From Verrucomicrobiota bacterium (GTDB lineage: Bacteria; Verrucomicrobiota; Verrucomicrobiia; Opitutales; Coraliomargaritaceae): a DNA stretch of 64,000 nt. A program made the translations under genes and the position numbers. The stretch is from NCBI GenBank assembly GCA_039815375.1, contig JBCBZJ010000004.1, forward strand, positions 160,001 to 224,000. The letters are read 5' to 3'. Shown here piece by piece: positions 23,527 through 64,000 of the stretch (position 1 is the stretch's first letter; every line of letters starts with the position of its first letter). The notes under the pieces are model-generated. The model ran no database searches, had not been told where the DNA came from, and saw only the letters and a list, made by a program, of their open reading frames with translations.

Positions 23527-26107
<2,581 letters not shown>

Positions 26108-53103: not shown

Positions 53104-53541
53104 ATGAAGCGTATCGTTATTATCAACGGTCCAAATCTGGACCGGCTCGGTCTGCGTGAGCCGGAAATCTACGGTGACCAAACTCTGACCGACCTGGAGA
53201 ACCTACTCGTTGAGGAGGCTGCTTCGTTAGGCGTGGACGTTCAGTTCTACCAAAGTAACCACGAGGGCTTCATCATTGATGAAATCAATAATCAGTATGC
53301 CGACGGTGAAGTCTTTGGACTGATCATCAATCCGGGTGCGCTTACACATACCAGCCTCGCTTTGCGGGATGCACTGGCCGGCAGCGACCTTCCGGCTATT
53401 GAGGTGCACATCAGTAACATTTATAAGCGCGAAAAAATACGGCAGCATTCCATGACTGCGGAGGCCTGCCTGGGTGTTATCTCCGGTATCGGCTTCGATG
53501 GTTACCTAGCTGCCTTACGCTACCTTGCAAAGCTGGACTAG
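53104..53541 (+). CDS. aroQ: Type II 3-dehydroquinate dehydratase
   Basis: NGPNLDRLGLREPEIYG, QSNHEG, NPGALTHTS, EVHISN. Confidence 0.96.
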   Translation: MKRIVIINGPNLDRLGLREPEIYGDQTLTDLENLLVEEAASLGVDVQFYQSNHEGFIIDEINNQYADGEVFGLIINPGALTHTSLALRDALAGSDLPAIEVHISNIYKREKIRQHSMTAEACLGVISGIGFDGYLAALRYLAKLD

Positions 53542-56069
53542 TCGCTCGGTAACAACTGAGCGAGCTCCTCAAGATCGCCAAAGTGCTCGCTCATTTCTTT
53601 CGCGCTACCCATGTGACCCAGGGTATTCTCAAAAAGTTCACGTTTCTCCTTTTTGAGCTGCTGGATTCGCTGCTCGATGGTCCCTTCGGTAATCATACGG
53701 TAAACAAAAACACGGCGATCCTGGCCGATTCGATGCACGCGGTCGACAGCCTGATTTTCGACGGCAGGGTTCCACCAGGGGTCGAGTAGGAAAACATAAT
53801 CGGCAGCATGTAGCGTAATGCCAGTTCCACCCGCGCGAAGACTCACGAGAATCACCGCTGCCCCGCCTTCGTTCTGGAAACGTTCTACCGGTTTGGACCG
53901 GTCCTTTGTTTCTCCGGTAAGCTCATGAAGGGCGATATTGGGGAAGTTTGTTCTTAGAATCGGCTTAAGTCGCTTAAGCAATTGGACAAACTGGCTGAAG
54001 ATAACGATCTTACGCTTACCGTCTCCTTCGAGTGCCTCACCGAGCCGCGTCAGCAACATCTGCACCTTCCCACTTTGACTCACGTCCGCATCCACATCCG
54101 GAATCAACCCGGGATCACAGCATGCCTGGCGCAGTCGGGTTAACAGAGAAAAGAAATGCATCGCATTGGCTTGCATCGCGACCTGTAGATTCTCACCAAG
54201 CTCGTCGCGACCGCGCGCAAGTAGATTCTCGTAGGTCTGGCGCTGCAGTCCAGTGATCGGACAAATCAAATCCATCTCAACCTTAGGCGGGAGGTCGGTC
54301 CCAACCTTATCCTTTTGGCGGCGAAGAATAAACGGTGCAATCTGCTGGCGCAGCCGCTTTTCAAAGGTTTGCCTTAATTCAAGGTTGGGCGCATTGGCGT
54401 TGTCTTCGAAACGGCGACGACTACCCAGCAAACCAGGCATAAGAAAGCGAAAGAGTGTCCAAAGATCGAGCAGTCGATTCTCGATCGGGGTACCGGTCAA
54501 AGCGAGCCGGAATTCGGCACGGATTGCGCAGCAGGCCTGCGTTACTTTAGCCTCGGGATTCTTGATTTGCTGCGCCTCATCCAGCACCGCATAACCGAAA
54601 TCAACTCGTTCTAACAGATGCTTGTGGCGGCGAAGCTGAGTATAACTTGCAATCCAAAGAGTCGTTTCTCCAATCTGATTTCGAGAAAAGTCTTCTCCGG
54701 TCCGAAGCACTGCCGTTCGCATATTGGGATACCAACGACGGACCTCGTTTTCCCAAACCGGCACGACACTGGCAGGACAAACAATCAGGCTGTCCTTTTT
54801 CTCAAAAGGATGGGAATTCAAAAGAGTAAGAACCTGAAGCGTTTTCCCCAGACCCATTTCATCAGCGAGAAGGCCGTGACAAGCCTGAGCGCGAAGGTTA
54901 GCCATCCAACGCACCCCAGCTTCCTGATAGTCCCGCAAAAATGAAGGCAGTGATGGGCTCATCTCTCTCTCCACATCTCCGAGCAGCGCCGCCCGCCAGG
55001 ATTCAACCTCCTCTTCCAGATCAAGCTCAGCCCCACGCTCGCCGAAAAGGGACAAGACCATATAGCGCGGCCAGGTTTGCGGTTGGTCCGATCCGGTAGA
55101 CGCTGCGACGCGCCATTCCGCAAGCGCCTGAGATTGGTCGTCCGCAATGCGCACCAGGCCCAGTCCCTTCACAATGTGTGTGCCTCTACCTGCACGCGCG
55201 AGGCGCTCCGCATCTTCCGGATCGAGCCACTGACGCCCGAGCTTAAGCCGCCAATCCACTTGCATGCCATCTTCACCGACAGATTCAACCCGGCCAACGA
55301 TTTTGACATCGCGCACACCCTCAGCCATATACTGTGCTTCCAAGTCAAGATCAATGTAGCTAAACACTTCTTCCCAGCGAGGCGTTGTGTGCGAGAAAAA
55401 AGGTCCAACCTGCTCGGGATCGTTTAGAAGAAAGTCATTTGCTTCCGATCGATACCGGAAACCTGCATCCTTTGCCAAGCCTGTCAGTCGAACCAGTGCT
55501 TCACGCTCGGAACTGACCAACGGTTTTTCATCACTTCGAAAGGCAGGTTCCTTGGAAAAGTCGGGATTGGTCCAGTAGGCCGTAAGACGCAGACCCGAAC
55601 GCACACCCTCCACTTTCGGCGTCAGACGCCGAGCTGGCCGCTCTGCACGTTCAACAACAAATCTCTCGGCACGCCGACTTTCTCCAGCATGTTCGGAACG
55701 CTTATTCGCCTTCTTCACTTCATGAGGAACCGGTGCAATTTCATCCGCTACCAGCTCCTCAATCTCGTAAAGCCCGGCTACCGCCACTGCGCGTCCAAGC
55801 GCAAGGTCTTCAGTCGAACTACGGACTTTCGGTCCCTCCTTAGTCCATTCGATCACAGCGTAACAAGTATCCTTCCGCGAAAAGGCACAATTCACGATCG
55901 CTTCGCCATCTGCGAGCTCGACACCGGAAATCAGACCTTCGCGGTAAATCTCCCGGCCACGTAACAACGATTCCTGATCAAAACTGCCTTCCCATTCGAA
56001 TCCAACATTACCGAACCACACTTCAAGTGCGGCCTCATTGTAGACACGACTGGAGGCACGGGGCAGCAT
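53538..56069 (-). CDS. SNF2-family DEAD/DEAH helicase
   Basis: LADEMGLGKT, DEAQ, LTGTPIEN, FSQF, SLRAGGTG, WWNPAVENQAVDRVHRIGQ. Confidence 0.94.
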   Translation of the reverse strand: MLPRASSRVYNEAALEVWFGNVGFEWEGSFDQESLLRGREIYREGLISGVELADGEAIVNCAFSRKDTCYAVIEWTKEGPKVRSSTEDLALGRAVAVAGLYEIEELVADEIAPVPHEVKKANKRSEHAGESRRAERFVVERAERPARRLTPKVEGVRSGLRLTAYWTNPDFSKEPAFRSDEKPLVSSEREALVRLTGLAKDAGFRYRSEANDFLLNDPEQVGPFFSHTTPRWEEVFSYIDLDLEAQYMAEGVRDVKIVGRVESVGEDGMQVDWRLKLGRQWLDPEDAERLARAGRGTHIVKGLGLVRIADDQSQALAEWRVAASTGSDQPQTWPRYMVLSLFGERGAELDLEEEVESWRAALLGDVEREMSPSLPSFLRDYQEAGVRWMANLRAQACHGLLADEMGLGKTLQVLTLLNSHPFEKKDSLIVCPASVVPVWENEVRRWYPNMRTAVLRTGEDFSRNQIGETTLWIASYTQLRRHKHLLERVDFGYAVLDEAQQIKNPEAKVTQACCAIRAEFRLALTGTPIENRLLDLWTLFRFLMPGLLGSRRRFEDNANAPNLELRQTFEKRLRQQIAPFILRRQKDKVGTDLPPKVEMDLICPITGLQRQTYENLLARGRDELGENLQVAMQANAMHFFSLLTRLRQACCDPGLIPDVDADVSQSGKVQMLLTRLGEALEGDGKRKIVIFSQFVQLLKRLKPILRTNFPNIALHELTGETKDRSKPVERFQNEGGAAVILVSLRAGGTGITLHAADYVFLLDPWWNPAVENQAVDRVHRIGQDRRVFVYRMITEGTIEQRIQQLKKEKRELFENTLGHMGSAKEMSEHFGDLEELAQLLPSD

Positions 56070-56120
56070 AAGGATATAATGAACCCCATACCGTAGCTTT
56101 CTAAACCGAGTCGCCGCAAG

Positions 56121-57896
56121 TTATTTTGCAATCGATTCAGCACCTGTTTCCAAGTCAATCCGGCGACCAATCAAACGTAGCAACACAAATGCCAGGATTG
56201 GGAAAAGAAAATAGAATACAATCGGGGGCAGCCCAAAGAAGGCAATCAAGGTGTATCCGCTCACACTGGCTAATAACATAGTGCTTAGCGCATAGGGTAA
56301 CTGCGTCGCCACATGGTGCAAATGGTCGCAACCTGTCGCCAATGAAGAAAGGACCGTTGTATCTGAGATTGGACTACAGTGGTCTCCAAAAATCGCACCA
56401 TCCAAAACCGCAGCAGCAGTCAGCACAAAGATCATCATACGGGTAGGATCGTCCGCACCTAAAAGCCAAACGAAAGGCAGCATAATAGGAATCATCACAC
56501 CCATCGTGCCCCAGCTCGTGCCCATGGCAAAGGCCATGCCTGCAGCCAGCACAAAGGTCAATAAGGGGACAGCCGCCAAGGGCAGGGCTTCTCCCACCAT
56601 CGAAAGTAGATAATAGCTCGTGCCGAGCTCTTCACATATCGTTTTCATCGCCCAGGCCATCGGCAAAATGAATAGAGTCACGCCAAGTGTCGGCAAGGAG
56701 CCGGCATAGGCGCCGACAGCCTCGACAGGCTTGAGCAACCGCTGAAAAACAGGCATTAGAATTGCCACGATACCTCCCGCGACTGCAGCCCAGAAAAGCA
56801 CTAACGGCACACCTGGACCACCGTCGGGAAGACTTGGATCGTAGACCGTGATCCCGAAGATCTCACGGAGTCCGATCAAGGTGAAAAACTCGGGGCTCGA
56901 GCCATCACGCATCAAACGGCTAGAGCCCACATATAGAATGCCACCCAGCACACCAAACAAGACCGTCGCCAGAGGCACACCGGCATTCCACCAGCGAAAG
57001 GGAGTTCCTGCCGGTGGCTCGAGCCGCTCAGGATTTTCTCGAAGCAATGGCCTTGCATCCGGCGCAACCACTTGTCCTGTCTCTCGGGCTCTGCGCTCGG
57101 CTTTAAGCATCGGGCCGAAATCGCGTCGCGTCATGATGTTAATGATTAGGAAGATCAAGGTGCCCCAACAGTAAAAACGCACCGGAAGCATTTGCACAAA
57201 AACAGCGTAGCCTCCCGTCTCCATTCCCAAGGACTGTACCGTCGAGCCCAAGAGCCAGACCTCGTAAGCGATCCAACTGGAAATCACGGCAAGACCGGCA
57301 ATCGGCGCCGTCGTTGAATCAACGATGTAGGCCAACTTCTCCCGAGAAATTTTGAAGCGGTCCGTCAAGCTCCGCATGGTTTGCCCAACCACAATAGTGT
57401 TCGAATAGTCGTCGAAGAAAATCATCAACCCAGCCCCGAATGTGGCAATCTTCGCAGAGCGGGCACTCCGCGCGATCCTGCTGAAGACAACGACCAATCC
57501 TTGAATGCCGCCGCTCTTGTAAAGCACATGGACCATACCGACGAGAGCGAAGAGGAAACCGAAAATATAAAGAGAGAACTGGCCCGTCACATTAGCCCAA
57601 AGAAAGTCCCTCACCGAACTAGGCACAAAAACCAGCGGGTTGAAACCGAAATTCAAAACCGCCCCGGTAAGAAAGGCGCAACTCAAGGCAGCCACCAGTG
57701 AACGGAATGAGATCGCCAGAACCACGGCAACCAAAGGTGGCATAAGCGATGACCAATGCCCCTGGTCGCCACCGGCTGACTCCGGCAAGGGGCCCGTCGG
57801 CAAAAATTCCAGAATGAGACAAATCAGCGCCAATGAAGTAAGGCATGCGATCCAGCGCACGGGTTGTCTCCAAAGGTTAGTTCTCGAATTTGCCAT
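56121..57896 (-). CDS. NhaC-family (Na+/H+ antiporter-like) transporter
   Basis: FFDDYSN, SREKLAYIVDSTTAP, GTSWGT, GAIFGDHCSPISDTT. Confidence 0.9.
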   Translation of the reverse strand: MANSRTNLWRQPVRWIACLTSLALICLILEFLPTGPLPESAGGDQGHWSSLMPPLVAVVLAISFRSLVAALSCAFLTGAVLNFGFNPLVFVPSSVRDFLWANVTGQFSLYIFGFLFALVGMVHVLYKSGGIQGLVVVFSRIARSARSAKIATFGAGLMIFFDDYSNTIVVGQTMRSLTDRFKISREKLAYIVDSTTAPIAGLAVISSWIAYEVWLLGSTVQSLGMETGGYAVFVQMLPVRFYCWGTLIFLIINIMTRRDFGPMLKAERRARETGQVVAPDARPLLRENPERLEPPAGTPFRWWNAGVPLATVLFGVLGGILYVGSSRLMRDGSSPEFFTLIGLREIFGITVYDPSLPDGGPGVPLVLFWAAVAGGIVAILMPVFQRLLKPVEAVGAYAGSLPTLGVTLFILPMAWAMKTICEELGTSYYLLSMVGEALPLAAVPLLTFVLAAGMAFAMGTSWGTMGVMIPIMLPFVWLLGADDPTRMMIFVLTAAAVLDGAIFGDHCSPISDTTVLSSLATGCDHLHHVATQLPYALSTMLLASVSGYTLIAFFGLPPIVFYFLFPILAFVLLRLIGRRIDLETGAESIAK

Positions 57897-57898
57897 CT

Positions 57899-58435
57899 TT
57901 ACAACTTTCCCTCAACCGGCACTTCACGAGTGCGACAAATAACGGCATCCTTGAACTCTGGATAGTCCGAGCAGAGCGTCTCGCGTTCCCCGAGCTCGAA
58001 GTCAGACCACTCGAAACCAGGGACCATCATACAACTCCCGAAGAAGAATCCAGCCTCACCAGCCACCAGCTTGGTGCCCTGCCAACTGCCCATCGGCGTG
58101 GTCAGTTGCAACTTCTCACCGGCCTCAAGATTGGATCCGATCCTGAGCAGCTCGCCACGACCATTCTCATGCAGAAGTAGCATCTCGGCAGAATCGCCAA
58201 GGTGATGGAACCAATGCTCCGCTGTCGGAAGGCGATGCATCGCTGAAAATGAATCTGCTGTCAGCAGGAAGTAGATCAATGTGCCCATAGGATGGTCACC
58301 TTTTTCGGGATAGCGCGAACACAGCTCGCTATTCCGGACTCTTAAACCACTCCGCCATACCTGACGGAAGTAGCCACCTTCCTGATCGAGCGGTTCCAAG
58401 CCGTAGTGCTCGATAATGGCCTCTGCTGTCAGCAT
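57899..58435 (-). CDS. Cupin_5 / DUF985 family protein
   Basis: LEPLDQEGGYFRQ, TLIYFLL, SAMHRL..AEHWFHHLG, MVPGFEWSDFELG. Confidence 0.88.
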   Translation of the reverse strand: MLTAEAIIEHYGLEPLDQEGGYFRQVWRSGLRVRNSELCSRYPEKGDHPMGTLIYFLLTADSFSAMHRLPTAEHWFHHLGDSAEMLLLHENGRGELLRIGSNLEAGEKLQLTTPMGSWQGTKLVAGEAGFFFGSCMMVPGFEWSDFELGERETLCSDYPEFKDAVICRTREVPVEGKL

Positions 58436-58442
58436 ACGGGCA

Positions 58443-59435
58443 CTATTCAGCCATCAGCTCATCGAGCAAGGCAAAGAGCACAGCAGCCCCGCCGCGGGAC
58501 GCCTTCACATCATAGATATTCTCATCATTCTTACCTTCCTGGCCACCTGCCAAATCACTCACCGCACGAATAATCACCCAGTCGATGTCGTTGATGTGAC
58601 AGACCTGCCCGATTGCGGCCGATTCCATCTCTGTAACCTCTGCATTGAACACGTCACGTATCCATTTCCGGTATTCGCGGTTATCCACGAAAACTGATCC
58701 GGTCACACCATTACCTCCCACCGTGATCGCAGCCATCCGCCCTGGTAGAACCTCGATCTCAGGCATGGATTGAATCGCTGCAGCAGTCGCTTCGAGCAAG
58801 CGAGGCGTAGCAGAAAAGTAAGCAGTCTCTTTGGGCTCAGTCATGCCCTCTTTGATAATCAGCACGTCATCCGGGTGGATCATCCCAAAGGGTTTGTAAT
58901 TGGGAATGTTGGGATCTTTTGCTCGGCGTGCGTCCTTTCGACTGAGAAAGCCCTCGTAATAATCCGGCTCGATAAATTCACCCGTTTCATTCGGGTCGGG
59001 ATTCACATAGACGCTCTCATCGTGATAATACCATCGGGCCGGCACAGTCACGTCGCCCGGCTGCAGTTGTGGATTCACCGCGCCCGCGATTCCCATATAG
59101 ATCACTTCTTTGATCGGAAAATAGTCGAAGGCCATCTGCATACTCATCGCAGCATTCGCGATACTCATGCCGGTAGCAAAAACGATCACCGGCTCACCCT
59201 GATAGGTGCCGATTCGATAACGAACTCCCTTGATCGCGAAAACCTCACCCATCTCCGCATTTGGGTTCGCATCGATTGCTTCGACCAGAGCGATCATCTC
59301 CGGCTCGTAGGCCACCACAATCGCAGTCAAAGGTTCGGCATCAAAGGTCCGGGGACCGTAGGCTGTTTCCGTTGTAGCACATCCAGAAAACCAGACGACG
59401 GTAACAGTTATCAGAAGTGAAATAGTCTTATGCAT
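58443..59435 (-). CDS. MTA/SAH-nucleosidase-fold (PNP_UDP_1) lipoprotein
   Basis: Lipobox WFSGC; AYEPE, TGMSIANAAM, GIAG, EMESAA, RAVSDLAG. Confidence 0.85.
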   Translation of the reverse strand: MHKTISLLITVTVVWFSGCATTETAYGPRTFDAEPLTAIVVAYEPEMIALVEAIDANPNAEMGEVFAIKGVRYRIGTYQGEPVIVFATGMSIANAAMSMQMAFDYFPIKEVIYMGIAGAVNPQLQPGDVTVPARWYYHDESVYVNPDPNETGEFIEPDYYEGFLSRKDARRAKDPNIPNYKPFGMIHPDDVLIIKEGMTEPKETAYFSATPRLLEATAAAIQSMPEIEVLPGRMAAITVGGNGVTGSVFVDNREYRKWIRDVFNAEVTEMESAAIGQVCHINDIDWVIIRAVSDLAGGQEGKNDENIYDVKASRGGAAVLFALLDELMAE

Positions 59436-59440
59436 TTTTC

Positions 59441-60760
59441 TTATTTTTTAATTCGTATGCCCATACGCAGAGTCTTCGAGTCGACCTCGCCCGGGTAAGC
59501 GTAATTCTCCATCTCGGGAGGACTGGTTATCTCGTAATCGTATCCAGAAAGCAAATACCCAAGAATCAAAGGCATCTGGATGCGAACCAAGTTCATCCCG
59601 ATGCAGGTATGCGACCCACCACCAAAAGTGCCGTGTGCATTTCTCGGGTAGTTGTGATCCAACCAGCGGCCAGGATTAAAAACAAAAGGTTCCTCATAGA
59701 TCGAATTGTCGAAGTGCATCAGACTCGCCAGATGCAGGCAGTTTGTTCCTGCGCCTATCGGATAGCCGAGAAATTCAATGTCCTGGGCAGGCACTCGCGG
59801 TAGAACCGGAGCCGCCGGAAACATGCGCTCCGTTTCAAGCAAGGTCGCTTTAAGCAGCGGGAAATGCTTCATTCCTTCGGCCAGCCTATGAGCATCAAAG
59901 TCACCAATTTCTTCGCGCAGCCTGGCAGTCCACTCGGGATTGAGGCTAAGCGCATGCAAGAGATAGCTTGTCAGCTTCGAAGTATTGCCAGTGCCGGCAA
60001 TCAGCAGCAAATACGTATCATAGATCAGCTCTTCTTCGCTCAGTGGATCGATCGCAGAACTGGTTTTTTGCTGAATGACTTCGTCGAGTAAATCCTCAGG
60101 ATCGTCACGTTCCAGTCGCGCTTTGACGATTTCGTGCAGCTGAGTCAGGACAACGTTTTTCACGTCCAGATAGGAAGCGCGGTTGTAAATCAACTCACGC
60201 TCATGCCTCTTCATAAAGAGTGCACCGATGAAACCTTCTTCAAAATCCACCATCCGCTCGATTTCCTCTTCGGAAAAAACAGCTTTTACTGAGCTGCGTG
60301 CCTGCGCCCGTGTCAGCATTTTCATGAGCTCATGGTGCGATTCCACTTCCTTCCCTTCGATCGCGGCGAGTCCCTCTTGTATCGTCTCTGCGGTAGCGGC
60401 TATACTGGACATGACAGAAGAATTCTTGAAGCCCTTGTTGAGAAGGCGGCGCTTTCGGCGGTGCGGCTCGCGGTCCAGCTGAGTAAGATGCAGTTCGCTC
60501 AACTCCTCGCGAAAAACAGCAACGGCTTGACCATAGCTCCAGTTGTCCGGCGTGCGCCAAGCCACCTCATTGGCATCGAGTCCGGAAAGGATCACAAAAG
60601 TCTCACCGTTCACTTCGGTGGTAAAAACCGAGCCTGCTTCACGATAAGCCTCGAGAAAAGACTCAGCCGTATACCCACGAAACTGGATCGGCGTTTTCGA
60701 GCTCTCTTTACTGTGACGGACAAGTTTATCACCCGGAAAGTATGCAACTTCTTTGACCAT
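59441..60760 (-). CDS. Cytochrome P450
   Basis: FGGGSHTCIG heme motif, ETER (ExxR), FNPGRW, I-helix AGTGNT. Confidence 0.92.
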   Translation of the reverse strand: MVKEVAYFPGDKLVRHSKESSKTPIQFRGYTAESFLEAYREAGSVFTTEVNGETFVILSGLDANEVAWRTPDNWSYGQAVAVFREELSELHLTQLDREPHRRKRRLLNKGFKNSSVMSSIAATAETIQEGLAAIEGKEVESHHELMKMLTRAQARSSVKAVFSEEEIERMVDFEEGFIGALFMKRHERELIYNRASYLDVKNVVLTQLHEIVKARLERDDPEDLLDEVIQQKTSSAIDPLSEEELIYDTYLLLIAGTGNTSKLTSYLLHALSLNPEWTARLREEIGDFDAHRLAEGMKHFPLLKATLLETERMFPAAPVLPRVPAQDIEFLGYPIGAGTNCLHLASLMHFDNSIYEEPFVFNPGRWLDHNYPRNAHGTFGGGSHTCIGMNLVRIQMPLILGYLLSGYDYEITSPPEMENYAYPGEVDSKTLRMGIRIKK

Positions 60761-60761
60761 T

Positions 60762-62108
60762 CTATATGCCCTCCTCGTGAACCAACTCAGCGGGTTCGCC
60801 CTTTCTTAAATATACCAGATTCATAATGACTGCAGTTAGGCCGCCAGTCGCCACAGACGAGCTCAAGACGCCGCGCAAGAGCGGCGGCAGGCTCTCCACC
60901 AAGGCATCTTGACTGGGTATCCCGAAGGCCATGCCGAGACTGATAGCGAGAACCAATACTTCCTTACTGCCGATTGGCACCTGATTAATCATACGAAGAC
61001 CAGCTCCAGCGATCAGGCCAAAGAGCAGCAGAGTGACGCCGCCCAACACCGGTTTGGGGATCATCGAAAAGAACACTCCCGTCTGCGGCAGAAGTGCACA
61101 GAGAATGAGAATGCCCGCGACGTAAAAACCCACTTGTCGACTGCCAACACCTGTCAGTTGAATAACACCATTGTTCTGAGAGAACGTTGAGGTCGGAAAG
61201 GCGGAAATCAGCGCCGCCAAGGTCGAAGCAATCGCATCCGAAAAAATACCGCCGCGTAGGCGTTTCCAGAAACGCTCACCTGTGGTCTCCATTCCCGAAA
61301 GACTCGCCGTCGCACTCAGGTCGCCGATCGATTCGATCGAGGAAACCAAATAGATAATGGCAAAGGGCAAAAGGAGCTCCCACTTGAAGGCGAGTCCGGC
61401 TTTCAGTGGCTCGGGCACGATCAACCAGTTGCCCTCTCCAACATCAGGCCACTGCAGCAATCCGAAAAGCGATGCAATGGCGTAACCAATCGCAATCGCC
61501 AGCACAGGACCACAAATGCGAAGCATGGGCTTACCTAAAATCTGAGTCAGCAAAAGAATCCCGACAACGACGCCTGCGAGCAGGCAATTCTGGCTCCAGA
61601 TGATTTCTCCTTCAGCACTTGGTGACGCGATGTAGTAACCTGCGACCGGGATCAGTGTCAGACCAATCAAAAGGACGACGATCCCGGCAACCATGGGGGA
61701 AAAGAGTCGACGCATACCAGGCAAAAAGAAAGCGAGTGTAAACTGGAGCGGAACGGCCGCGAGCGTCATGCCACAGGCCAAAGCGATTCCGCCCTCACTG
61801 CCTGACCGAAGGAGCAAATCGAGGTAGGCAAAACTGGTTCCGTTAACCGAAAGAAGCCCGGACCCAATCGGTCCGAGGCGAGCTGCCTGCAGTAAGGTGC
61901 CAACGCCAGCCGTGAGGAGCGACATACTGATCAGATAACGCTGCATCTCCGGCGCAAGCTCGACCACGGAAATGAAAATCAAAGCTGGCGTAATACAGCC
62001 AATAAACATGGCCACGACCTGCTGCAAAGCCGCCAGTAAGGCTTTGGGTGCAGGCATAACACTATCGTGTGGATAGAGGAGTTCTGTCTTCGGAGAGGAA
62101 GCCTGCAC
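60762..62108 (-). CDS. NCS2/NAT nucleobase:cation symporter, xanthine-permease-like
   Basis: NAT motif TFSQNNGVIQLTG, GTSFA, ESIGDL. Start could be the ATG of MPAPK instead. Confidence 0.9.
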   Translation of the reverse strand: MQASSPKTELLYPHDSVMPAPKALLAALQQVVAMFIGCITPALIFISVVELAPEMQRYLISMSLLTAGVGTLLQAARLGPIGSGLLSVNGTSFAYLDLLLRSGSEGGIALACGMTLAAVPLQFTLAFFLPGMRRLFSPMVAGIVVLLIGLTLIPVAGYYIASPSAEGEIIWSQNCLLAGVVVGILLLTQILGKPMLRICGPVLAIAIGYAIASLFGLLQWPDVGEGNWLIVPEPLKAGLAFKWELLLPFAIIYLVSSIESIGDLSATASLSGMETTGERFWKRLRGGIFSDAIASTLAALISAFPTSTFSQNNGVIQLTGVGSRQVGFYVAGILILCALLPQTGVFFSMIPKPVLGGVTLLLFGLIAGAGLRMINQVPIGSKEVLVLAISLGMAFGIPSQDALVESLPPLLRGVLSSSVATGGLTAVIMNLVYLRKGEPAELVHEEGI

Positions 62109-62119
62109 AAGCCACTCTT

Positions 62120-62135
62120 AGCAGGTTCTTTACCA
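62120..62135 (-). promoter_or_regulatory. Candidate sigma-54 promoter for the minus-strand permease-P450 operon
   Basis: TGGTAAAGAACCTGCT (GG-N10-GC); imperfect -24 element. Confidence 0.35.
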
Positions 62136-62191
62136 GCTTAGCAGAAGAACTCTACCAACATCAAATGGCATGAAAACTGTTGTGTGCAGCT

Positions 62192-62962
62192 ATGCCCAAA
62201 AAAGCAAAGCGCCCCCTCATTCTCGTGCTCAGTGCGATGCCTTCGGAAATCAAAATCATTCAAGAAGCGCTGGTTTCGAGCAAAGCAGGCACTGTTTCCA
62301 TTTTCCCCTACCTTGGTGGCACACTGGGTGACTTTGACGTGATCAGCACTGTGACCGGAGTCGGCGTAACCAACGGCGCGATGTGTACTGCTCTCTTTCT
62401 TGAAGCGTTCAAGCCTGCTGCAGTCCTCGTCTCTGGCACGGGATCCCGCTTCAACCCAGAGGTCGATTGCGGCGATGTGATTCTCTCCAAACAGACCATC
62501 CATCACGCAGCGGGGAGCCTGACCGATGACGGAATGGTCTACCGCAAGGTGCGAGGGCCACTACCGGGCATGATGACGAACTACGCCTACAGGCCGGATC
62601 CTCATCTATTTAAGGAAGCCAAACGCATTGCCAAAGATTACACCGCTGAACACGTCACCGTGGATGGCGAACGCTACCGTCCCAAGGTCTATCCGGGCAT
62701 TGTCACGGCAAGCGATCTTTTCGGCATCAACCAAGCCAAGATCAATGACATGCGCACCAAACTGAAGCCTGACCTGATGGAGATGGAGAGTGCTGCAATT
62801 GCTCAGGTCTGCGACCACCTGGGCTACCCACACCAGATCTTCCGTGCGGGCAGCAACCGAACGCAACCCGACCCTGGCAACGACTACCGTAAATATGGTC
62901 AGAAAGCGGCAGCTTCGGCAGCACGTTGGACTGTGCACTACTTGAAGGAGCTGAAACTTTAG
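62192..62962 (+). CDS. MTA/SAH-nucleosidase-fold enzyme with Asn at the general-acid position
   Basis: SAMPSE, TGVGVTN, SGTG, MEMESAA, RAGSN. Confidence 0.85.
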   Translation: MPKKAKRPLILVLSAMPSEIKIIQEALVSSKAGTVSIFPYLGGTLGDFDVISTVTGVGVTNGAMCTALFLEAFKPAAVLVSGTGSRFNPEVDCGDVILSKQTIHHAAGSLTDDGMVYRKVRGPLPGMMTNYAYRPDPHLFKEAKRIAKDYTAEHVTVDGERYRPKVYPGIVTASDLFGINQAKINDMRTKLKPDLMEMESAAIAQVCDHLGYPHQIFRAGSNRTQPDPGNDYRKYGQKAAASAARWTVHYLKELKL

Positions 62963-62965
62963 CCG

Positions 62966-64000
62966 ATGTTGGGCCTCAACATACGACGCGGTGATTGGGA
63001 CGGATTTATCGCCGCTTTTATCAATAATCTGGTTCAGTTGCTGATCGTCGCACCGCTCTGCCTCGGAGTCCTCGGCTTTTCCGCCGAGCTCGTCATCGGT
63101 CGAATCCTTCCCGGTATGGCGGTTTCCTTTTTAGTCGGAAATCTGTACTACGCCTACCTCACCAAGAAGCTGCAGCGAGAAAACGGACGAAATGACATCT
63201 GTGCCCTGCCCTACGGGATCAGCACGCCGGCTGTGTTTGCCAACATCTTCCTCATCATGCTCCCAGCGAAGCTTATCGCTGAAGCCAACAATCTCCCGGA
63301 TCCTGAGCTTACTGCCTGGCGTGCCGGGCTACTCGCTTGCTTCCTTGGTGGCTTGATCGAATGCGCGGGTGCCTTTTGCGCGGCTGGACTACGCAAACTC
63401 GTGCCGAGGGTCGCCTTAATCAGCACGCTCGGCGGGGTGGGCCTCGGTTTTCTGGGTATGGCATTTCTCTTTCAACTCATGGAAGCGCCGCTAGCGGGCA
63501 TACCGGTCTTCTTTCTGGGCATGGCGCTCCTAATCCGACCCTTCAAATTACCCATCTGGCTACCCGCAACAGCCATCATCCTTGTTGCGGGGACTACACT
63601 CGGCTGGCTCACTCAAGCGGCCCCGGTATCGACCTTGGGCCTCGCCCCGCTCTCGCAGATAAATCTACATTTACCGCTACCAAACCCGAGCGACTTAATT
63701 GCTTCGTTTCAGGGCACAGAGCTGGCAACGACCCTCAGCGTGGTGCTTCCGATTTCGCTGCTGGGCGTGATCGCCTCACTCCAAAATATTGAATCTGCAG
63801 CGGCTGCCGGAGATGCGTTTCCCGAGCGCCCGTGCCTCATCGTGAATGGGCTCGGGACGCTTGCAGCCTCCTTCTTCGGATCACCTTTCCCAACGTCGAT
63901 TTACATCGGCCATCCGGCCTGGAAGAAAATGGGGGCAGGTTACCACTACTCCGTCCTCAACGGATTGGCTATCGCATTCGTCTGCCTGAGCGGGCTGCTC
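62966..64000 (+). CDS. NCS2-superfamily (xanthine/uracil/vitamin C) permease, runs off the window
   Basis: Not in the ORF track. Manual translation MLGLNIRRGDWDGFIAAFINNLVQL...ALPYGISTP...QNIESAAAAGD...GSPFPTSIYIGHPAWK. Confidence 0.8.
   Translation, partial: MLGLNIRRGDWDGFIAAFINNLVQLLIVAPLCLGVLGFSAELVIGRILPGMAVSFLVGNLYYAYLTKKLQRENGRNDICALPYGISTPAVFANIFLIMLPAKLIAEANNLPDPELTAWRAGLLACFLGGLIECAGAFCAAGLRKLVPRVALISTLGGVGLGFLGMAFLFQLMEAPLAGIPVFFLGMALLIRPFKLPIWLPATAIILVAGTTLGWLTQAAPVSTLGLAPLSQINLHLPLPNPSDLIASFQGTELATTLSVVLPISLLGVIASLQNIESAAAAGDAFPERPCLIVNGLGTLAASFFGSPFPTSIYIGHPAWKKMGAGYHYSVLNGLAIAFVCLSGLL

Follow-up and report, generated by a model that had tools for sequence, protein, structure and literature searches.

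Bacterial loci for the salvage of nucleosides and nucleobases, the described systems closest to the one reported here, encode nucleosidases of the PNP_UDP_1 family, permeases of the NCS2 family and hypoxanthine phosphoribosyltransferase (HGPRT). The same genes are found at and just beyond the end of the 64,000-nucleotide stretch of a Verrucomicrobiota genome that we analyzed (hereafter, the window; positions 160001-224000 of contig C40 of genome G000, an assembly of 3.56 Mb with 99.9% completeness), where they accompany a cytochrome P450. Relatives of this locus in other genomes add proteins of the adenosine-deaminase family (ADA), adenine deaminase, NUP and IU-nucleoside hydrolase. Unlike the bacterial salvage loci, the operons described here build in the P450, a 2-oxoglutarate (2OG) dioxygenase similar to thymine-7-hydroxylase (T7H), and a DUF985 cupin, which, to our knowledge, belong to no known salvage route. 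This is a nucleoside scavenging locus with oxidative tailoring enzymes that are not known from such loci. The original prediction, made from the sequence alone, knew of no described pathway with this composition; we found no matching description in the literature, nor any account of P450s taking part in the salvage of purines or nucleosides by bacteria.

Three other systems share individual elements with the locus. T7H of fungal thymidine salvage (Neurospora crassa; Protein Data Bank entry 5c3p) is the closest solved relative of the 2OG enzyme, whose gene lies 4.5 kb from that of the P450, and the principle of recycling a free base by oxidative demethylation is shared as well; however, the context of the window is purine rather than pyrimidine, and the equivalents of Glu122 and Asn294 of T7H are Thr and Asp. 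The Ndm Rieske oxygenases of caffeine and methylxanthine degradation, together with xanthine dehydrogenase (XDH), likewise tailor purine bases oxidatively before ring catabolism, but no Rieske or molybdenum enzyme was detected in the window locus by Pfam and NCBIfam searches, and XDH is encoded on another contig. Finally, the cytokinin P450s CYP735A and FasA, with LOG, can be likened to the locus by gene content only, as a P450, LOG and a purine permease in one neighborhood, whereas isopentenyltransferase and CKX are missing from the window locus.

Modified nucleosides are the end products of all RNA and DNA turnover, and their recycling by free-living bacteria is largely unknown. We read the locus, which is conserved in Verrucomicrobiota, as one for scavenging purine nucleosides. 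Its P450 is predicted to oxidize, most likely by dealkylation or hydroxylation, a substituent of a modified adenine-type purine, which would make the base usable for ordinary deaminases and phosphoribosyltransferases; taken as a whole, this reading is about evenly balanced between right and wrong. Its parts differ in strength. The P450 probably acts on one of the compounds that pass through purine-nucleoside scavenging; that it oxidatively dealkylates a modified adenine is a more tentative assignment, which we would put somewhat below an even chance.

Organization of the locus

Genes were called from the list of open reading frames and from Pfam and NCBIfam profile searches against curated cut-offs; the Pfam scores of the genes with a match are all well above these. 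The locus comprises the following features (window positions; the supporting evidence is given in parentheses):

60762..62108, minus strand: NCS2/NAT nucleobase:cation symporter, 448 aa, first gene of the operon (Pfam Xan_ur_permease, TIGR00801)
59441..60760, minus strand: cytochrome P450 of a distinct family, 439 aa (Pfam p450, motifs, AlphaFold2 model)
58443..59435, minus strand: MTAN-like (PNP_UDP_1) nucleosidase with a predicted lipoprotein signal, 330 aa (Pfam PNP_UDP_1)
57899..58435, minus strand: Cupin_5 (DUF985) cupin, 178 aa (Pfam Cupin_5)
56121..57896, minus strand: NhaC-family (Na_H_antiporter) transporter, 591 aa, last gene of the operon (Pfam Na_H_antiporter)
62109..62179, no strand: divergent intergenic region of 71 nt between the two units (open reading frame list)
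62180..62962, plus strand: second MTAN-like nucleosidase, 260 aa, without signal peptide (Pfam PNP_UDP_1)
62966..64000 (open at the window end), plus strand: permease with a predicted UraA fold, 545 aa, extending to G000:C40:224604 (AlphaFold2, Foldseek)

The minus-strand genes are separated by gaps of 1, 5, 7 and 2 nt (in the order NCS2, P450, nucleosidase, cupin, NhaC), and the plus-strand pair by 3 nt. The five-gene operon with its gap sizes, as originally described, was reproduced to the nucleotide by the open reading frame list and Pfam, and the list also confirms its divergence from the second nucleosidase and the permease that runs off the window. The arrangement is not a product of chance, as shown by the conservation of NCS2, P450 and lipoprotein nucleosidase in 12 of the 12 members of the P450 clade to which the window belongs. 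Scans for promoters and terminators across the locus yielded no sites above those in shuffled sequences.

Neighborhood of the P450 family

A scan of one genome per species identified 57 loci with relatives of the P450, and neighboring genes in all of them were mapped with tblastn, using as queries the proteins of the window and Pfam-annotated neighbors. A quick IQ-TREE phylogeny was built from 56 P450 rows, namely, 54 from these loci, the P450 of the window, and a 30%-identical paralog from contig C63 of the same genome; P450 pieces shorter than 330 aa (L047, L048, L049, L054; L-numbers denote the compared loci) were left out. A row was counted as purine-linked if at least one gene for a nucleoside or nucleobase protein lay within 6 kb of the P450. 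By this measure, 41 of the 56 rows are linked, compared with 3.9% of the G000 genome that lies within 6 kb of a match to the same queries, a contrast that is somewhat inflated because the query set was taken from the P450 neighbors themselves. Linkage of P450 homologs to nucleobase genes elsewhere, on which the original prediction had been staked beforehand, is thus the prevailing situation in the family. The rows without a purine neighbor come from L013, L029, L034, L038, L041, L042, L043, L045, L046, L055 (twice) and L056-L059, some of which are short contigs.

Purine genes accompany the P450 repeatedly, in at least five clades that differ in gene order. In clade A, which includes the window (12 rows, SH-aLRT 99), the NCS2 permease upstream and the lipoprotein nucleosidase downstream of the P450 are present in all 12 rows, Cupin_5 follows the nucleosidase in 9, and NhaC is found in 5, the remaining rows being cut by contig ends or different; P450, NCS2, nucleosidase and cupin are the genes that had been put forward for a conservation check. 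Many clade A loci additionally encode a periplasmic NUP, Vut_1, a deaminase with the cytidine deaminase (CDA) fold, an FAA-hydrolase, MatE, and a long LOG-like protein, as well as IU-nucleoside hydrolases, adenine deaminase and a TonB-dependent receptor; the G000 counterparts of these extra genes are located on contigs C10, C27 and C37. In the sister group of clade A, three of the four rows combine an MTAN-like enzyme with a signal peptide, ADA, a UraA-fold permease, NUP, NCS2 and adenine deaminase.

The 19 rows of clade B3 show a different arrangement: ADA is encoded directly downstream of the P450 in 16 of them, a T7H-like 2OG dioxygenase, 51-54% identical to that of the window genome, directly upstream in 8, and a UraA-fold permease is convergent with them. 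The closest solved structures of the ADA proteins next to the P450 are 3ou8/3pan/3pao and 3rys, which we take to be ADA-family deaminases of free adenine (3ou8/3pan/3pao being, presumably, Pa0148). A further clade, which includes the C63 paralog, links the P450 with ADA, NUP and an NMT1-type ABC transporter. The paralog itself (G000:C63:51427-54046; L076:7428-10046) lies immediately downstream of a gene of the ADA family. Encoded divergently from it are an ABC transporter with a binding protein of the NMT1/THI5 type, DUF1152 and an aldo-keto reductase, and parts of this arrangement recur in the relatives L052, L053 and L057. In two Pelagicoccus-like genomes (L032:12934-14046 and L049:8605-9834), the P450 adjoins an Amidohydro_2 protein, presumably of the family that includes iso-orotate decarboxylase, next to a Fur-family regulator.

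These neighborhoods also bear on the notion that the P450 belongs to the biosynthesis of an exported purine-derived metabolite or signal, or else sits beside purine genes by chance. A MatE exporter is encoded near the operon in L007-L011 and L020, and 12 kb downstream of it in G000, and 15 of the 56 rows have no purine neighbor. However, no synthase, methyltransferase, glycosyltransferase or ligase is encoded in the loci, where importers, glycosidases, deaminases and a phosphoribosyltransferase accompany the P450, and the repeated association across at least five clades of differing gene order stands against the background of 3.9%. We regard biosynthesis or chance placement as highly improbable.

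The cytochrome P450

The window protein is a genuine heme-thiolate P450, and its family is distant from every P450 of solved structure. It matches Pfam p450 with 156.4 bits (cut-off 22.8) and contains the Cys-ligand loop FGGGSHTCIG and the ExxR motif (ETER); C386, E309 and R312 are invariant in 29 sequences of the family. The I-helix, which in P450s normally carries an Asp/Glu-Thr acid-alcohol pair, reads AGTGNTS, with the Thr kept and Asn at the acid position, and G258, N259 and T260 are nearly invariant among the 29 members. The best solved relative is CYP120A1 (2ve3; 74 bits), and the AlphaFold2 model (pLDDT 90.5) is matched by Foldseek to P450 BM3, CYP97A3 and CYP120A1 with a TM-score of about 0.75 and at most 22% identity. 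All NCBIfam P450 equivalogs score far below their cut-offs, the best one reaching 94.8 of 525 bits. Given that assignment to the same P450 family takes more than 40% identity to a member, the protein would represent a new CYP family when compared with the solved P450s. Homologs down to 36% identity come almost exclusively from Verrucomicrobiota, after which identity drops to 24-28%.

CYP120A1 of Synechocystis and the heme domain of P450 BM3 have the fold, the Cys-ligand loop and ExxR in common with the P450 of the window; their substrates are retinoic acid and fatty acids, respectively, whereas the window P450 is at most 22% identical to them and has Asn for the I-helix acid. No redox partner is encoded in the locus, and no fusion of the P450 to a redox partner was detected among the longer proteins at an E-value of 1e-40, which is weak evidence. 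One protein from a metagenome contig (P0016, 464 aa), a 68%-identical P450, carries in its last 40 residues a zinc motif of cytidine/guanine deaminases (HAE...PCxxC); here the P450 is read through into a CDA-fold deaminase, by fusion or frameshift.

Nucleosidases, permeases and accessory proteins

The lipoprotein nucleosidase scores 111 bits against PNP_UDP_1 and 69.7 bits against TIGR01704 (MtnN), below the cut-off of 73.8. Its N-terminus, MHKTISLLITVTVVWFSGC (...VVWFSGC), resembles a lipoprotein-type signal, and a lipobox-like N-terminus with Cys is found in the 7 orthologs in which this region is covered, which supports the extracytoplasmic location originally proposed for the enzyme. The motifs TEMESAA and RAVSDLAGG align with the catalytic region of 5'-methylthioadenosine/S-adenosylhomocysteine nucleosidases (MTANs), and the Asp of the SD motif, which we take to be the catalytic Asp197 in E. 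coli MTAN numbering, is kept in all 14 orthologs that cover the site; the protein also contains an insertion of roughly 60 residues. The second, presumably cytoplasmic nucleosidase (PNP_UDP_1, 96 bits; TIGR01704, 68.1 bits, cut-off 73.8) has the segment RAGSNRTQ aligned with RALSDIAG, RAVSDSAD and RSLSDIAG of three solved MTANs, so that Asn replaces the catalytic Asp, as it does in 4 of 4 orthologs. At the equivalent site of trimeric purine nucleoside phosphorylases, Asn marks a preference for 6-oxopurines, which is a lead only for this enzyme.

The operon NCS2 permease was assigned with 246 bits to Xan_ur_permease and with 298.5 bits to TIGR00801 (ncs2; cut-off 291.8), which bears out the base permease claimed for the operon; its score for the PbuX subfamily TIGR03173 is 339.1 bits, below the cut-off of 414.15, and it contains the motif SQNNGVIQLTG. 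The 545-aa permease has no match in Pfam or NCBIfam. In an hhalign comparison with the operon NCS2 family, the probability was 4.6% (E 0.0088) with a colinear alignment over 258 columns, and the nearest ESM Atlas clusters carry the automatic names NCS2 and AGZA permease. The AlphaFold2 model (pLDDT 74) is matched by Foldseek to prestin/SLC26, SLC26Dg, BicA, SVCT1, UraA, UapA and AZG1 with TM-scores of 0.4-0.58 and E-values from 1e-7 to 1e-4. As modeled, the protein has the UraA fold, an inverted repeat of 7+7 transmembrane segments, in which NCS2 and SLC26 are not separable and which is also found in SLC4. The earlier designation of this permease as NCS2-like stands only at the level of the fold; the protein may belong to NCS2 or be SLC26-like. 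Its homologs adjoin P450 relatives in many loci.

The cupin (124.8 bits against Cupin_5, cut-off 25) has 3loi/3lzz as its closest solved relatives (E 1.9e-19), followed by 3m3i, 1yud, 1znp and 1xe7. A table in PMC11594714 lists 3LZZ with bound GDP, the only hint of purine-nucleotide binding by DUF985. No function for bacterial DUF985 was described in the literature we found. Cupin_5 is present in 85 of the 301 genomes of a phylum-wide sample, and as a general marker of purine genes it was rejected: none of the 30 best loci has a gene of the purine set within 1.5 kb. The NhaC-type transporter scores 139 bits in Pfam and 40.1 bits against the NhaC equivalog TIGR00931, far below the cut-off of 370. 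It follows Cupin_5 in the window, L008, L010, L011 and L020. In L109 (G081:C13:10546-13971), an NhaC-like gene and Cupin_5 are neighbors, with the P450 operon on a different contig. Cupin_5 and NhaC act as a pair of genes added onto the operon and may form a module of their own.

The nucleosidases suggest another role for the P450, which is the main rival of the one we propose, namely, that it acts on a sugar-derived fragment of 5'- or 2'-modified adenosines, hydroxylating or demethylating 5-deoxyribose, 5-methylthioribose or 2-O-methylribose. The periplasmic enzyme would then cleave methylthioadenosine, 5'-deoxyadenosine, S-adenosylhomocysteine or 2'-O-methyl nucleosides, the permeases would import adenine, the cupin would be a sugar isomerase, and the NhaC-type protein would import the fragment. 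Consistent with this, both nucleosidases score best against models of methylthioadenosine/S-adenosylhomocysteine nucleosidases, just under the cut-off, and against solved MTANs; a SAM_HAT_C (DUF62) protein is encoded after the ADA gene at about 236.3-237.5 kb of C40; the Cupin_5 and NhaC pair also occurs away from the P450 in L109; and demethylation of 6-O-methyl-galactose by a P450 of a marine bacterium has been described (PMC10033563). However, the commonest context of the P450 family, clade B3, lacks a nucleosidase and is limited to a permease of the base type, an ADA resembling adenine deaminase and the T7H-like dioxygenase, and Pfam and NCBIfam searches detected in the locus none of the sugar kinases, isomerases or aldolases of the known routes for methylthioribose and 5-deoxyribose. 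On balance, we consider action on a sugar fragment unlikely.

Genes beyond the window

The original prediction left the plus-strand unit running off the window; past 64 kb, it goes on with HGPRT, LOG and the 2OG dioxygenase. HGPRT begins about 8 nt after the 545-aa permease, with its start placed at the second Met cluster, and scores 98.8 bits against TIGR01203, below the cut-off. It is followed after 326 nt by a LOG-family gene (TIGR00730, 192 bits), and the 2OG-Fe(II) oxygenase (PF03171 and DIOX_N; G000:C40:226133-227050) starts 7 nt after LOG. Next comes a 418-aa protein (G000:C40:227159-228415; L002:11160-12416), located 3' of the 2OG gene, that has neither a Pfam or NCBIfam match nor a relative in the 57 loci, and then two histidine kinase genes, an esterase, a MatE exporter, an ADA gene and the SAM_HAT_C protein. 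The latter, with the C-terminal domain of S-adenosylmethionine hydroxide adenosyltransferases (DUF62; G000:C40:236350-237540; L067:351-1541), hints at the use of S-adenosyl compounds.

The closest solved relative of the 2OG enzyme is the Neurospora T7H 5c3p (E 6.8e-54). The study in PMC4787775 assigns to T7H an iron triad, 2OG-binding Arg286 and Ser288, Arg190, Phe292 and Tyr217 that sandwich the base, and Asn87, and describes water-mediated contacts of Glu122 and Asn294 to the uracil ring. In the HMMER alignment to 5c3p (chain numbering is that of the paper plus 2), the metal triad, Arg190, Leu192, Tyr194, Arg286, Ser288, Phe292/Tyr217 and Asn87 are identical in the enzyme encoded here, whereas Glu122 is replaced by Thr and Asn294 by Asp. 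Several of the matching residues are common across the wider isopenicillin N synthase-like family and are weak indicators of specificity. A homolog of iso-orotate decarboxylase was not found in G000 with one Amidohydro_2 query.

With LOG in the same unit, cytokinin turnover is to be considered as a special case of the role that we propose. The locus would then scavenge or inactivate algal or plant N6-isoprenoid adenines (isopentenyladenine, zeatin, their ribosides and ribotides): LOG would free the base from ribotides, the nucleosidases would do so for ribosides, and the side chain would be hydroxylated or cleaved by the P450. CYP735A of plants and FasA of Rhodococcus fascians are cytokinin P450s, AZG1/2 carry cytokinins, and the ADA family includes a cytokinin deaminase. 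Besides the adjacency of LOG and the 2OG gene, a 350-aa LOG-like gene lies beside the operon in L008, L010, L012 and L020, Foldseek matches the 545-aa permease to Arabidopsis AZG1 among others, and DNA of the stretch occurs in marine metagenomes, namely, seven data sets from two studies, one of them possibly the source, whereas no RNA data set with the stretch is listed. However, neither an isopentenyltransferase nor a CKX-type gene was detected in the locus by Pfam and NCBIfam searches, LOG-family members are widespread nucleotide N-glycosidases with housekeeping roles, and LOG is absent from the B3 clusters. A dedicated cytokinin function therefore seems to us rather improbable.

Canonical purine catabolism

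No enzyme of canonical purine catabolism was detected by Pfam and NCBIfam searches between position 56121 of the window and C40:228412. Such enzymes are encoded elsewhere in G000. A cluster on contig C27 (G000:C27:13323-23318; L068:5324-15319) encodes guanine deaminase (guaD), XdhC, XdhA, XdhB (791 bits) and a PuuD-type urate oxidase (Urate_ox_N with cytochrome c), along with a class-V aminotransferase and an 8-oxoguanine-deaminase-like protein, and is preceded by genes for IU-nucleoside hydrolase, adenine deaminase, NUP, a long ADA and NCS2. OHCU decarboxylase, HIU hydrolase, allantoate amidohydrolase and allantoinase are encoded at 241-245 kb of C40, about 20 kb further on from the locus; uricase PF01014 was not found in G000. 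We accordingly rejected the possibility that the P450 replaces XDH or urate oxidase in this genome, where XDH, PuuD, HIU hydrolase, OHCU decarboxylase and allantoinase are all present. Characterized routes of purine oxidation, which according to the original prediction rely on enzymes other than P450s, are thus encoded elsewhere in G000 (XDH and PuuD), so the P450 does something additional.

A broader form of this idea is molybdenum-independent ring hydroxylation, whereby the P450 and the 2OG dioxygenase would act at C2 or C8 of hypoxanthine, xanthine or adenine in place of XDH and urate oxidase. Fungi use a 2OG dioxygenase, XanA, for xanthine, and the operon permease is xanthine/urate-like. 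Moreover, in the 10 genomes with the 2OG-P450-ADA-permease cluster (G004-G006, G008, G010-G014 and G016; 8 clusters seen whole and 2 cut by contig ends), no match to the XdhB family was detected, whereas every one of the 10 other P450-bearing genomes has some molybdenum hydroxylase match, above the cut-off in 4 of them, and OHCU decarboxylase was found in 7; this survey covered metagenome-assembled genomes for which completeness figures are absent, and the 10 cluster-bearing genomes are close kin. In G000, however, guaD-xdhC-xdhA-xdhB, PuuD and the downstream urate-degrading enzymes are present; OHCU decarboxylase was found in 0 of the 10 XDH-less genomes, so urate would have nowhere to go; and the kinship of these genomes (ADA 71-99% identical) implies few independent events. 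Ring hydroxylation by the P450 is thus very unlikely. Given the lack of both XDH and OHCU decarboxylase matches in the 10 genomes, the simplest reading is that the cluster there supplies salvage rather than ring breakdown.

Queuine salvage, suggested by Vut_1/YhhQ and the CDA-fold deaminase in L003, L004 and L007-L011, is weakened by the presence of QueC and Tgt in G000 and because an MTAN-type enzyme needs N7. The gene for Tgt (tRNA-guanine transglycosylase) is located in the window (24935-26008, minus strand) and that for QueC on contig C11, so queuosine is made de novo.

Proposed pathway

In the pathway that we propose, nucleosides would enter the periplasm, where the lipoprotein MTAN-like enzyme, with its catalytic Asp kept, would release a 6-aminopurine-type base, and the NCS2 and UraA-fold permeases would import the freed bases. 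In the cytoplasm, the P450 would hydroxylate the carbon next to nitrogen in an N6-alkyl group (methyl or isopentenyl), or another alkyl group, yielding either an unstable carbinolamine that decays to adenine and an aldehyde or a hydroxylated base. The product could then be deaminated, salvaged by HGPRT or degraded via the canonical pathway; in 16 of the 19 clade B3 rows, an adenine-deaminase-like ADA directly follows the P450. The T7H-like dioxygenase would handle a second kind of methylated base. N-dealkylation is a textbook P450 reaction and fits a step just before an adenine deaminase.

The tailoring of a modified purine by the P450, as originally predicted, is partly supported: the P450 family is tied to purine genes, and a purine ring, rather than a sugar-derived fragment, is the putative target of a putative modification. 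Several points weigh against the proposed pathway. N6-substituted adenines can also be processed hydrolytically, by N6-methyladenine deaminases and cytokinin deaminases, and do not strictly require oxidation. The MTAN-like nucleosidases point as much to 5'-modified as to base-modified adenosines, and the DUF62 gene, S-adenosylmethionine hydrolase-like, lies near the ADA gene 12 kb downstream. By NCBIfam ranking, the operon NCS2 permease is xanthine/urate-like and not of the adenine type. The P450 family is not uniformly purine-linked, the 15 unlinked rows including a whole clade of 5 beside EF-G, and the choice of the query set favors linkage. With Asn for the I-helix acid, the oxygen-activation chemistry of the P450 may be atypical. 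Finally, an Rfam search at the gathering score, which covered 142 kb in L002 and six related loci, detected one tRNA only and no riboswitch.

If the proposed role is correct, an oxidative de-modification step would be added to nucleotide salvage, a new P450 family would gain a function, and there would be a lead for DUF985; the finding would also bear on the nitrogen cycling of dissolved organic matter and, should cytokinins be among the substrates, on signaling between bacteria and algae. A bolder version, which we deem doubtful, is that this previously unrecognized P450 family is an aerobic "eraser" of alkylated free purines that oxidatively strips N6-methyl, N6-isopentenyl and similar groups from scavenged adenines, beside the T7H-like dioxygenase. 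Marine and freshwater Verrucomicrobiota would then feed on modified nucleosides from RNA and DNA turnover and, in doing so, destroy algal cytokinins too.

Distribution of the module

In an even sample of the order, the P450 family was detected at an E-value of 1e-30 or better in 21 of 201 genomes (G000 included) and 11 of 103 genera, and within the family of the window organism, in 1 of the 9 other genomes. The congener G198 (99% complete) has no match to either the P450 or the lipoprotein nucleosidase, and G182 and G081 have both. DNA synteny between G000 and G198 spans the stretch from photolyase to the SNF2 helicase and ends exactly at the operon edge; beyond it, G198 matches contig C12 of G000. 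The joint presence or absence of the P450 and the nucleosidase, together with the synteny break at the operon edge, indicates that the module is accessory and was gained or lost as a unit.

The gene that borders the operon, at about position 56100, encodes the SNF2-family helicase (843 aa; 53538-56069, minus strand), and the purine island sits at a rearrangement breakpoint between G000 and G198.

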